Below, one piece after another: positions 32,546 through 49,359 of a stretch of DNA of 64,000 bases (within the stretch, counting starts at the first letter, position 1; every line of letters starts with the position of its first letter). Origin of the DNA: Escherichia phage CJ20; the sequence record MT533174.1; one strand, 5' to 3'. The notes under the pieces are model-generated. The model did not search any database, was not told the origin of the DNA, and worked only from the letters and a program-made list of their open reading frames with translations. The position numbers and the translations under genes were made by a program.

Positions 32546-32621
32546 GGCCCTGTAGCTCAATTGGTTAGAGCATCCGGCTCATAACTGGCAGGTTTCCGGT
32601 TCAAGTCCGGATGGGGCCACC
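32546..32621 (+). tRNA. tRNA with anticodon CAU (Met, or Ile if the C34 is lysidine-modified as in the T4 tRNA-Ile)
   Basis: Hand-folded cloverleaf: acceptor GGCCCTG/TGGGGCC, D stem GCTC/GAGC, anticodon loop CTCATAA, T arm TCCGG-TTCAAGT-CCGGA, discriminator A plus CC; one mismatch in the anticodon stem. Confidence 0.75.
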
Positions 32622-32698
32622 CGGGGTGTAGCTTAATTGTATAGAGCAACGGTCTTCTAAACCGTAGGTTGTGGGTTAGAATCCCGCCACCCCGACCA
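32622..32698 (+). tRNA. tRNA-Arg (anticodon UCU)
   Basis: Hand-folded cloverleaf with all stems pairing: acceptor CGGGGTG/CACCCCG, D stem GCTT/GAGC, anticodon stem ACGGT/ACCGT with loop CTTCTAA, T arm GTGGG-TTAGAAT-CCCGC, discriminator A and encoded CCA. Confidence 0.82.
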
Positions 32699-46885: not shown

Positions 46886-46886
<1 letters not shown>

Positions 46887-46915
46887 TGTACAAGCAGGTT
46901 GAAATGAGTTATGAT
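46886..46915 (+). promoter_or_regulatory. T4-type early promoter (PeSL-like cassette)
   Basis: -35 GTGTAC (46886-46891), 18-nt spacer, -10 TATGAT (46910-46915), then ...ATCCCATCAAACAAAAGGAGATAATCATG. Confidence 0.55.
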
Positions 46916-46942
46916 TATCCCATCAAACAAAAGGAGATAATC

Positions 46943-47401
46943 ATGACTACTATCGATTCAAGTGTTTACATTCGCCGCAATAAACTTCGTCGTATTTTTG
47001 AAACGGAGTTCCTCAAAATTAATAATGCTATCAACAAGGCTTGTAAAGAAGCAGGTCTTGAAGCATTCTTCATTAAGTACAGTCCGCACCTGTTGGACCG
47101 TGCAATCCAACGTGAAATTGACGAACAATATGTTTTTGACTTGTTTGGAAAAATCACACCACATGTAAAAGAAATCGTTGAATTCCTGGAGATGAAACCA
47201 CTCCCGGAAGTTGAAGCACAAATTGACCCGAGTGTGAACTACCGTCCACTTCGTCTGGAAATCACAGACAAGAACCTATGGTTAGGAATGACAGTTAACC
47301 CAGCTCTTCCTGGGAAGTCTCCAACCATGTGTTGTCGTATGGCGTTTGTTAACTCTAATCGTCTTGAAGGAAAAATTAGCACAAAAGTGATTTATATCTA
47401 A
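46943..47401 (+). CDS. regB: site-specific endoribonuclease, T4 RegB-like
   Basis: 152 codons from the ATG at 46943; MTTIDSSVYIRRNKLRRIFETEFLKINNAINKA...HLLDRAIQREIDEQYVF...LEITDKNLWLG... closely matches my recall of T4 RegB. Confidence 0.88.
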   Translation: MTTIDSSVYIRRNKLRRIFETEFLKINNAINKACKEAGLEAFFIKYSPHLLDRAIQREIDEQYVFDLFGKITPHVKEIVEFLEMKPLPEVEAQIDPSVNYRPLRLEITDKNLWLGMTVNPALPGKSPTMCCRMAFVNSNRLEGKISTKVIYI

Positions 47402-47411
47402 TGGGGAATTC

Positions 47412-47954
47412 ATGAAAAAAGTAATAGCCACTTTACTATTGACAGTTAGTATGTCTGCCCATAGCGTAGAGCCTACTTTCAGTAATGAACAAATGGAAAA
47501 TCTTCAATATGCTTATGCGTTTGGAGAACAGTTCCAGAAAAATGGTAAGTACAAAGAAAATCCGCACCAACATAATGGTTTGGGATATATCATGGCTGGT
47601 TTAACCTGGCAGGAATCATCTGCTGGTGTTAATACAGGATTAAATAAAGATAAGCATCATGCATATGGTATATTCCAAAATTATCTTCCAACCGTGCGTG
47701 AGCGCGTAAAACAGGTTGGGTGGACAATGACAGATAAAGAAATAATCAAGATGATAAGCAAGAGAGAGAACAGTGCACGCTGGGCTTATATTGAGCTTTC
47801 ATACTGGTTGAACATTCACAAGGGGGACATAAGAAAAACACTATCATCATATAACGCAGGGTGGAATGTGAAAGCTGGAAACACGTATGCTTCGCAAGTC
47901 CTAGAAAAAGCTAACTACTTAAAATCACGAGGCCTATTAAAAACGGTGGATTAA
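47412..47954 (+). CDS. secreted lytic transglycosylase (SLT-domain)-like protein, 180 aa
   Basis: N-terminal signal peptide MKKVIATLLLTVSMSAHS; SLT motifs in order: catalytic E-S (TWQESSAG), GIFQ (GLMQ-like) and SYNAG (AYNAG-like). Confidence 0.7.
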   Translation: MKKVIATLLLTVSMSAHSVEPTFSNEQMENLQYAYAFGEQFQKNGKYKENPHQHNGLGYIMAGLTWQESSAGVNTGLNKDKHHAYGIFQNYLPTVRERVKQVGWTMTDKEIIKMISKRENSARWAYIELSYWLNIHKGDIRKTLSSYNAGWNVKAGNTYASQVLEKANYLKSRGLLKTVD

Positions 47955-48314
47955 ATGGTAAGAGTCATAACTTTAGCCATAGGGTTAGTATTTAGCACGG
48001 GAGGAATAGCTTCAGTACAGAGCGATGATAATAATAGCATCATAGAATATGCAACGAGGACGGCCAAAGATTATTGCGCATCAAGCAATGTGGATTGTGT
48101 AATCCAGTTCAGTGCCAAACTCACTGCTGCCTATAAAGACGGTCAAAATGATGTTGAACACACTCTTATGAAAAAGAGTATTTTATCCAACAAATATGAA
48201 AAGAAACTATTTGAAATGGATTGTATTCTGTCGAGTGCCAAATATAAAGCGGCCTGTACCAGTATGGTTGACAGGTTAGTCGATTCCTATAACAGAGGAT
48301 TGAACTCTAAATGA
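47955..48314 (+). CDS. secreted/periplasmic Cys-containing protein, 119 aa
   Basis: ATG 1 nt after the previous stop; signal-peptide-like N-terminus MVRVITLAIGLVFSTGGIASVQS. Confidence 0.6.
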   Translation: MVRVITLAIGLVFSTGGIASVQSDDNNSIIEYATRTAKDYCASSNVDCVIQFSAKLTAAYKDGQNDVEHTLMKKSILSNKYEKKLFEMDCILSSAKYKAACTSMVDRLVDSYNRGLNSK

Positions 48315-48790
48315 TTGTTAACTATATTAAGGGCGATATAGTCGCCCTCTTTCTCGAAGGAAACATCATAGCTCATGGCTGTAATTGTTTCCATACAATG
48401 GGTTCAGGTGTCGCTGGCCAACTGACAAAGGCTTACCCAAAAATTTTAGAAATGGATAAGACATCAACTGAATACGGTTCCCGAGAAAAACTCGGTGATA
48501 TGTCTATCGTTTTTAAACATAAGCCAACTGGATTTGGTATGTGCTATAACCTTTATACCCAGTATGAACCGGGTCCAAATCTGGATTATGGCGCTTTAGT
48601 AAATTGCATGATAGAATTAAATCTACAAGCAGAATCACTTTTGTTCAAGCCTGTGATTTATATTCCCAGGATTGGATGTGGTATTGCAGGTGGTGATTGG
48701 GATAAGGTTTCCCGGTTAATTGATATGTTTACTCCTGATATTGATTTGGTGGTAGTTGATTATGAAAGCACATTATCCACATCCGTTTGA
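48311..48790 (+). CDS. macro domain protein (TARG1/OARD1-like ADP-ribose-binding or hydrolase fold), 159 aa
   Basis: Motifs in canonical macro-domain order: GDIVALFLEGNIIAHGCNC (cf. AHCISxDxxMGAGIA of TARG1), MGSGVAGQL (Gly-rich phosphate loop), IPRIGCGIAGGDWDKV (second loop). Confidence 0.7.
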   Translation: MIVNYIKGDIVALFLEGNIIAHGCNCFHTMGSGVAGQLTKAYPKILEMDKTSTEYGSREKLGDMSIVFKHKPTGFGMCYNLYTQYEPGPNLDYGALVNCMIELNLQAESLLFKPVIYIPRIGCGIAGGDWDKVSRLIDMFTPDIDLVVVDYESTLSTSV

Positions 48791-48974
48791 CCCTAAAAAC
48801 AAAGCTACAATTATTCGACACTGGTCCGAAACACGGGTAACCAAGTGTCCTATAAAAAGTCCTCACAATGTAGATAAGTGGTATATCGGCGAGTATGTTG
48901 AATATACTTTTATTGACAAAAACAAACGTAAACAGTATGTAGAAGAATACTGCTTAAAGGTACAATGGTTATGA
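48756..48974 (+). CDS. hypothetical protein, 72 aa
   Basis: ATG ORF overlapping the end of the macro-domain gene by about 35 nt (an alternative start at 48762 exists). Confidence 0.45.
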   Translation: MIMKAHYPHPFDPKNKATIIRHWSETRVTKCPIKSPHNVDKWYIGEYVEYTFIDKNKRKQYVEEYCLKVQWL

Positions 48975-49177
48975 GCCAAGCCCGAATTCTTAAAACGGCC
49001 AAATGTGAAAAATGTGAATGGCCAGTAATCGCAGCTTTATGCAACGATGAAATGAATTGCGAATTTGATTACCGGTGGTACTGTTCTAATAAAGGATGTT
49101 CTAATCATAAGGGTGAAGGTTTTCATTCTGGCGATTGCGAACATCCTAAATTTGTGCGATATGGGGAACCGAAATGA
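48965..49177 (+). CDS. Cys-rich small protein, 70 aa (possible zinc-binding)
   Basis: ATG ORF with 10 Cys residues (CEKCEWP...CNDEMNCEF...YCSNKGCSNHKGEGFHSGDCEH). Confidence 0.55.
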   Translation: MVMSQARILKTAKCEKCEWPVIAALCNDEMNCEFDYRWYCSNKGCSNHKGEGFHSGDCEHPKFVRYGEPK

Positions 49178-49359
49178 GTTTAAGCATTAGTCAGAAAAGT
49201 AGATTATTTGAGCTTATCCATGAGCTTTTGGATGAGCATACAGAAGCAAACGCTTTTTATGATGAATACGGTCCAATAGATGCCGAACATCAGGAAGAAT
49301 TTGCCAATCGATTTGATGCGAAAGAAAACGAATTAATAGCTTATGTGAATACGCTTTAA
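49174..49359 (+). CDS. small acidic protein, 61 aa
   Basis: ATGA overlap with the previous gene (MSLSISQKSRLFELIHELLDEHTEANAFYDEYGPIDAEHQEEF...). Confidence 0.5.
   Translation: MSLSISQKSRLFELIHELLDEHTEANAFYDEYGPIDAEHQEEFANRFDAKENELIAYVNTL

Follow-up and report, generated by a model that had tools for sequence, protein, structure and literature searches.

The regB–tk block and its tk.4 gene

The window (that is, the whole 64,000-nucleotide stretch of DNA that was analysed, from Escherichia phage CJ20, record MT533174.1) carries a gene for a stand-alone macrodomain, tk.4 (adfM), at 48311..48790 (+), with an ATG start, a TGA stop and a product of 159 aa. The genes that precede it are those of RegB (PF10715; 46943-47401, +; Pfam match 1.4e-71), vs.1 (47412-47954) and vs (valyl-tRNA synthetase modifier; 47955-48314, +; assigned from the open reading frame list and from a slot that is the same in VR7 and T4), the last of which adjoins and overlaps tk.4. 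Downstream follow tk.3 (DUF7202; 48762-48974; Pfam 1.6e-36 over 48762-48971), tk.2 (DUF7438; 49174-49359; Pfam) and the gene of thymidine kinase (PF00265; 49369-49941; Pfam), and this order (regB, vs.1, vs, tk.4, tk.3, tk.2, tk) is the one annotated for VR7 and T4. Reading frame coordinates and sequence place an ATGA overlap between the stop codon of vs and the start codon of tk.4 at 48311..48314 (+), and this 4-nt overlap is also present in VR7 and T4; the 3′ end of tk.4 in turn overlaps the start of tk.3 by 29 nt (48762..48790, +; open reading frame list), as it does in VR7. Given the ATGA overlap, we infer that vs and tk.4 would be co-transcribed and translationally coupled. A scan of 44–51 kb for sigma-70 promoters and terminators returned 26 sites compared with 21.4 +/- 4.5 in shuffled sequence, that is, no excess.

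By megablast, the region belongs to T-even-type phages, with VR7/VR25-like Gapriverviruses at approximately 92–96% nucleotide identity, and identities of the window protein to deposited ones (for example, that of VR25) reach 97.5%. Tk.4 of T4 aligns with it collinearly over its full length (60% identity, 75% positives, 155 aa, 0 gaps, E=1e-71), occupies the same vs/tk.3 slot with the same ATGA overlap and has H22, N25, Y82, Q84, P119, G122, G124 and W130 in common with it. The two proteins nevertheless differ at 40% of residues overall, among others in the second glycine-rich loop (GAGIGKGNW in T4, GCGIAGGDW in the window), and the window protein has four extra C-terminal residues. Because the identity of 60% is gap-free and the gene order from regB to tk is the same, the gene is, by sequence and position, the tk.4 (adfM) ortholog of a Gaprivervirus-like T-even-type phage, an identity that the preliminary description had not given.

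Several features of the surrounding DNA were recorded in passing. The open reading frame of regB (46886-47401, +) opens at a GTG (171 aa), whereas the RegB Pfam match and the VR7 and T4 annotations fit an internal ATG at 46943 (152 aa). Gene vs (47955-48314) had no Pfam match; in minimal medium, no T4 gene was depleted more strongly than its T4 counterpart (HIDEN-SEQ; 10.1101/2025.11.20.689424). Between tk.3 and tk.2 lies a Cys-rich open reading frame of 70 aa (48965-49177, +) that matches a phage zinc-binding domain (Pfam PF23895, 2.9e-27) and is missing in VR7, where tk.3 abuts tk.2; this absence is probably behind the two-piece coverage, approximately 89–90%, of a 2-kb query by VR7-type records. 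Phage 212 and SP18 span the whole 2-kb query, SP18 with an annotated hypothetical protein at this place, and both probably carry the PF23895 reading frame. The sole tRNA genes in the window (ARAGORN) are those of tRNA-Met(CAT) and tRNA-Arg(TCT), adjacent to each other at 32546-32698 (+).

Fold, class and active site of Tk.4

The macrodomain assignment of the preliminary description, which had been made from motifs, is backed by profile search: Pfam PF01661 (Macro) matches the window protein with 33.2 bits (cut-off 22; E=5.6e-8) over profile positions 2-117 of 118. The three-layer alpha/beta/alpha arrangement of the macro fold was found for the window protein in a structure run whose alignment was without a row for the T4 sequence. 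Its nearest neighbours in both structure and sequence belong to the ALC1-like class (that is, the TARG1/DarG/SCO6735/Poa1p group), and in a MAFFT alignment with references the identities to Tk.4 rank from BT1257 and SCO6735 (29 and 26%) through TARG1 (25%) to DarG (19–21%). Yeast Poa1p, an ADP-ribose 1″-phosphate phosphatase (PDB 6LFQ), is 24% identical, carries ‘PQINSGIAG’ as its second loop and gives a pairwise sequence match to Tk.4 that is broken into two pieces.

Conservation was assessed over 259 sequences, comprising the window protein and 258 relatives from two database searches. In the strand-end motif A21-H22-G23-C24-N25-C26 (48371..48388, +), His22 and Asn25 align with His24 and Asn27 of SCO6735; H22, G23, N25 and C26 are unchanged throughout 55–56 aligned relatives, and Asn25 occupies its column in all 257 sequences of the 259 that have a residue there. 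The first glycine-rich loop, which would bind the ADP-ribose diphosphate (MGSGVAG, M30 to G36; 48398..48418, +), aligns with ‘MGAGIA’ of TARG1 and ‘MGKGIA’ of DarG, and its G33 and A35 are invariant. The catalytic-position motif N80-L-Y82-T83-Q84 (48548..48562, +) places Gln84 in the column of TARG1 Lys84, DarG Lys80 and SCO6735 Gln85; Gln84 and Tyr82 are each present in 259 of 259 sequences and N80 in 258, and a lysine in the Gln84 column was found in none of the 259 relatives. In the second glycine-rich loop, P119-RIGCGIAGGD-W130 (48665..48700, +), G122 and G124 correspond to Gly126 and Gly128 of SCO6735, and conservation is complete or almost complete at P119, G122, G124 and W130. Ala126 of this loop stands in the column of TARG1 Asp125, and position 126 holds Ala in 208 sequences and Gly in 50, with Asp in none of 259.

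The assignment of the Gln84 column draws on several alignments. A family-profile alignment puts ‘LITKK’ of TARG1 over ‘NLYTQ’ of the family (Lys84 to Gln84) and ‘GCGLD’ of TARG1 (Asp125) over ‘GCGIA’ (Asp125 to Ala126), and pairs the Q of BT1257 ‘NMIGQ’ with the Q of Tk.4, followed by a 6-residue insertion; a HMMER alignment sets ‘FPTKK’ of Mycobacterium tuberculosis DarG over ‘LYTQY’ of Tk.4, the catalytic lysine being Lys80 in Thermus aquaticus numbering; and the MAFFT alignment with all references agrees on the column. For SCO6735, the sequence was taken from its alignment to BT1257, to which the published numbering (His24, Asn27, Lys34, Gln85, Gly87, Lys89) fits with a +20 tag offset, and by this numbering Gln85 falls in ‘ANMIGQ’. 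A pairwise HMMER match between BT1257 and Tk.4, in which ‘GQ’ stood against a gap and the glutamine seemed to be absent, was overruled by the family-profile and MAFFT alignments. Aligned in this way, Tk.4 shows a Gln-type (that is, SCO6735-like) active site, which is of neither the TARG1 nor the DarG type.

This bears on the likeness to human TARG1/OARD1 (PDB 4J5R/4J5S) that had been proposed for the protein. Tk.4 is indeed of the same ALC1-like structural class and of similar size, the loop after the catalytic position is equally short and aligns gap-free, and ‘AH’ and ‘PRIGCG’ are common to both; however, at 25% identity, the K84/D125 dyad on which TARG1 relies is replaced by Gln84 and Ala126, so that the likeness holds for the class and not for the catalytic residues. 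The further contrast that had been drawn, of an ‘AHC’ motif as in TARG1 rather than the ‘NAAN’ type, is half right, given that ‘AH’ is common to TARG1 but the canonical asparagine, Asn25, is kept in Tk.4 where TARG1 has Ser.

The macrodomain of DarG from DarTG2 (PDB 5M3I, 5M31/5M3E, 7OMU) is more distant (19–21% identity). Its Lys80, within the FPTK motif, becomes Gln84 in Tk.4, and its PPLGxGNGG loop becomes PRIGCGIAGG; its C-terminal DarT-binding domain has no counterpart in the 159-aa Tk.4. Membership of Tk.4 in the DarG family proper was considered and rejected: the NCBIfam DarG profile matched over positions 2-147 of 338 at 29 bits, where the cut-off is 250, and the PADLOC DarG profile over positions 3-144 of 329. 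No darT gene stands beside tk.4 in the window, where the neighbours are vs and tk.3.

The closest parallel in the active site is provided by SCO6735 of Streptomyces coelicolor and BT1257 of Bacteroides (PDB 5E3B, 2FG1/2AFC), which form the Gln-type ALC1-like subclass and have the catalytic-position Gln and the Asn and His in common with Tk.4 (Gln84, Asn25 and His22), together with, in SCO6735, glycines at the positions of Gly122 and Gly124. SCO6735 is without both of the catalytic residues of TARG1 and DarG; its Gln85 is essential (Q85A is dead on DNA as well as on protein) and depends on Asn27 for its placement (N27S is nearly inactive), and G128E abolishes activity (PMC9411070). In freeing DNA of thymidine-linked ADP-ribose it is faster than both DarG and TARG1, and it relieves DarT toxicity in E. 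coli as well as in Streptomyces (PMC9411070). The resemblance has clear bounds. Tk.4 is only 26–29% identical to SCO6735 and BT1257, which are chromosomal whereas Tk.4 is phage-borne, and it is missing the mobile loop that is 5–6 residues longer in this subclass than in DarG and TARG1 and that defines it. The short loop form is present in 159 of 259 Tk.4 relatives, TARG1 aligning gap-free and BT1257 with the 6-residue insertion. Two lysines that position DNA in SCO6735 are likewise absent: Lys34, the column of which (also that of a DarG lysine) holds Ser32 in the window protein and Ala, Ser or Gly in relatives, and Lys89, which would lie in the missing loop segment. As the longer loop, Lys34 and Lys89 are all reported to be important in SCO6735, details of the mechanism may differ in Tk.4. 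To judge from these comparisons, the Tk.4 family looks like a subgroup of its own, in which a scaffold with the short loop carries an active site of the Gln type.

Probable reversal of DNA ADP-ribosylation and competing readings

The gene is already known, and the anti-DarTG2 role of its T4 ortholog was published in 2025. When the HIDEN-SEQ preprint (10.1101/2025.11.20.689424, November 2025) screened a T4 transposon library on DarTG2-expressing E. coli, only tk.4 came out as significantly conditionally essential, and a clean T4 tk.4 knockout is DarTG2-sensitive there, which is genetic evidence from one preprint, one DarTG2 system and T4 alone (10.1101/2025.11.20.689424). Its authors described Tk.4 as structurally similar to the M. 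tuberculosis DarG macrodomain, renamed the gene adfM (anti-DarT factor Macrodomain) and proposed, without biochemistry, that AdfM enzymatically frees DNA of ADP-ribose (10.1101/2025.11.20.689424). A further factor had been predicted from the finding that T4 without adfA and adfN is still DarTG2-resistant (PMC11825919), and Tk.4 protein has been detected in T2-infected cells (bioRxiv 10.64898/2026.06.19.733364). Reversal of DarT-type DNA ADP-ribosylation, one of the roles that the preliminary description had raised for the protein, fits these genetics of the T4 ortholog. Our search of the literature on tk.4, AdfM, and SCO6735 with phage found neither a biochemical study of any Tk.4-type protein nor a paper on the Gln substitution in phage macrodomain proteins.

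We consider it likely that the window gene encodes a DNA de-ADP-ribosylating anti-DarT2 macrodomain, which, by analogy with SCO6735, most likely uses lysine-independent chemistry. DarT2 ADP-ribosylates thymidine in TNTC motifs of single-stranded DNA, by which phage replication is blocked (PMC13309987, PMC11825919). Tk.4 would be expressed from the regB–tk block, probably coupled to vs as the overlaps suggest, and, given the fold and the invariant residues, would hold ADP-ribose in the cleft between the two glycine loops. Gln84, oriented by Asn25, may then place the distal ribose for a water-mediated cleavage of the thymine–ribose bond as in SCO6735, a chemistry that would set Tk.4 apart from both TARG1, which uses Lys/Asp, and DarG, which uses Lys. 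Phage DNA would thereby be restored and replication could go on, consistent with the T4 knockout phenotype. We infer that T4 Tk.4 is enzymatic on DNA carrying thymine-linked ADP-ribose (T-ADPr) by such a mechanism and that the 60%-identical window ortholog acts alike. TARG1 too takes T-ADPr off DNA (PMC9411070, PMC13036486), and TARG1, DarG and SCO6735 all reverse thymine- or uracil-linked ADP-ribose (PMC13036486).

An activity that does not depend on DNA repair can also be envisioned, in which Tk.4 mainly binds and blocks DarT2, or in which its main substrate is another nucleic-acid adduct (for example, uracil-ADPr on RNA). Dead variants of SCO6735 (Q85A), DarG (K80A) and TARG1 (K84A) still inhibit DarT in vitro, SCO6735 most strongly (PMC9411070), and the phage factor AdfB has been proposed to work by direct interaction (PMC11481870); U-ADPr on RNA is also reversed by TARG1-like macrodomains (PMC13036486), and the T4 tk.4 data of the HIDEN-SEQ report are genetic only (10.1101/2025.11.20.689424). 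However, all ADP-ribose-binding and catalysis residues are invariant across the 259 relatives, as selection on enzyme activity would give, and Tk.4, with its 159 aa, is without the C-terminal domain by which DarG binds DarT and reaches 29 instead of 250 bits with the NCBIfam DarG profile. We therefore regard toxin binding or an alternative nucleic-acid adduct as an unlikely main function, although direct binding of DarT2 may contribute.

Erasure or editing of protein ADP-ribosylation, whether of the marks of the phage’s own Alt, ModA and ModB or of those of a host defence based on ADP-ribosyltransferases (ARTs), is another conceivable role for a macrodomain gene located in the early region; the preliminary description had likewise raised editing of Alt/Mod-type marks. 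To our knowledge, the ALC1-like class acts on acidic-residue and thymine/uracil-base linkages, and arginine-linked ADP-ribose is no known substrate of it. T-even phages encode three ARTs, and a review names arginines as the target sites of Alt and ModA, namely Arg84 of MazF and Arg265 of RNA polymerase alpha (PMC8120803); because linkage to arginine is not known for the class, editing of Alt, ModA and ModB products is unlikely. TARG1 and SCO6735 do de-ADP-ribosylate proteins as well, for example, auto-modified PARP1 E988Q (PMC9411070), yet the sole genome-wide T4 tk.4 phenotype found in the HIDEN-SEQ report is that on DarTG2 (10.1101/2025.11.20.689424), and the Tk.4 family, with 2768 phage records in all, extends to many phages that are not of the T-even group. 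Taken as a whole, a role on proteins seems to us very unlikely, and less probable than toxin binding.

Family contexts, fusions and a second AdfM

Relatives of Tk.4 were found in 2768 of 50,697 phage records, including those of Pseudomonas, Vibrio and Campylobacter phages, and the Tk.4 profile matched 18,765 clusters at 50% identity with E<=1e-3, and 1,192 with E<=1e-30. Three distant members all lie on phage-like contigs of 98–117 kb. One of them (L005, 541-888) has a gene for Acb5 (anti-CBASS) approximately 4 kb upstream, a second (L008, 6630-7190) has a Tad2-like (anti-Thoeris) gene two genes downstream, and the third is located among T4-type UvsY and RNA-ligase genes; these surroundings suggest a clustering of anti-defence genes around distant Tk.4-family genes. 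Neither a darT neighbour nor a bacterial toxin–antitoxin context was seen for the distant relatives looked up, the contexts of which were all phage-like.

A metagenomic protein of 472 aa (P0233; L003 6001-7419 and also L004 6001-7419) joins a Tk.4-type Macro domain (residues 1-151) to NADAR (170-344) and DUF4326 (360-443), and other fusions are DUF4326+Macro (P0231) and Macro+NUDIX (P0224). NADAR is the fold of the guanine-ADPr DNA hydrolases DarG1 and AdfN (PMC11825919, 10.1101/2025.11.20.689424), and the Macro–NADAR fusion therefore lends independent guilt-by-association support to a role in DNA de-ADP-ribosylation. On its domain composition, P0233 may be a single protein that reverses both thymine- and guanine-linked DNA ADP-ribosylation (that is, the products of DarT2 and DarT1).

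The same fusion weighs on what Tk.4 might do with small molecules, that is, act as a phosphatase of ADP-ribose 1″-phosphate (Appr-1″-p, hence ‘A1pp’) or as a hydrolase of O-acetyl-ADP-ribose or of gcADPR of the Thoeris type. No formation of Appr-1″-p by T4 RNA repair is known. Existing annotation leans towards the phosphatase, given that the tk.4 note of the T4 RefSeq record NC_000866 reads ‘contains A1pp phosphatase motif’ and that the window protein matches PHROG 335, ‘phosphatase’, with 9e-70; however, these names rest on homology transfer. DNA de-ADP-ribosylation would account for the DarTG2 phenotype, which these small-molecule activities do not explain, and the NADAR fusion points to DNA-base adducts. 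The Thoeris-signal reading, also raised in the preliminary description, and hydrolysis of O-acetyl-ADP-ribose found no positive evidence here; in the accessible part of the HIDEN-SEQ report, no Thoeris host is among those for which new anti-defence hits are given (10.1101/2025.11.20.689424). A small-molecule substrate is in our estimate slightly less probable again than a protein one.

The name AdfM has independently been given to gp104 of PhiKZ (Cell Rep 2026; PMC13309987), which de-ADP-ribosylates DarT2-modified DNA in vitro, rescues DarT2 toxicity and is imported into the phage nucleus (PMC13309987). Like T4 Tk.4, gp104 consists of a macrodomain alone and protects its phage from DarTG2. In contrast to Tk.4, it is of the DarG type: translation of the published construct gives a ‘FPTKD’ lysine and 37% identity to M. 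tuberculosis DarG (E=9e-25), compared with 18–20% identity to Tk.4 proteins and a score of no more than 35 bits from the profile of the Tk.4 family. The two AdfM proteins look, on these comparisons, like functional analogues from different subfamilies that were acquired separately, and the collision of names hides what are apparently two separate recruitments.

Combining these observations, we tentatively propose a broader scenario, which we regard as plausible but hold with clearly less confidence than the anti-DarT2 assignment. Tk.4-type proteins would constitute a large, mostly phage-borne ALC1-like subgroup of their own that pairs a SCO6735-like Gln site with the short loop of TARG1 and DarG; T-even and PhiKZ-like phages would have recruited different macrodomain lineages against DarT2; the proteins may be toxin-agnostic erasers of thymine- and uracil-linked ADP-ribose; and NADAR fusions would clear both thymine and guanine adducts. 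As an invariant Gln takes the place of the catalytic Lys of DarG and TARG1, mutational work on AdfM should be modelled on SCO6735 (that is, target Q84 and N25) and not on DarG. What is added here to the published role of the T4 gene (the Gln-type active site, the distinction of two AdfM subfamilies and the NADAR fusion) amounts to modest refinements.

The naming of the family deserves a separate remark. Relatives are variously labelled ‘phosphatase’, ‘macro domain protein’, ‘Poa1p-like’ and ‘hypothetical’; ‘phosphatase’ is a legacy name of the gene family and should read anti-DarT2 macrodomain. Annotation drift is also visible around the gene: tk.4 is a ‘phosphatase’ in T4 RefSeq NC_000866 and PHROG 335, the product of tk.3 is given as ‘Tk.2 conserved hypothetical protein’, and tk.4 figures as a ‘putative thymidine kinase’ in a preprint of 2026 (bioRxiv 10.64898/2026.06.19.733364). 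In the same RefSeq record, mobD.4 appears as ‘molybdopterin-guanine dinucleotide biosynthesis protein MobD’, a name apparently derived from the gene symbol.
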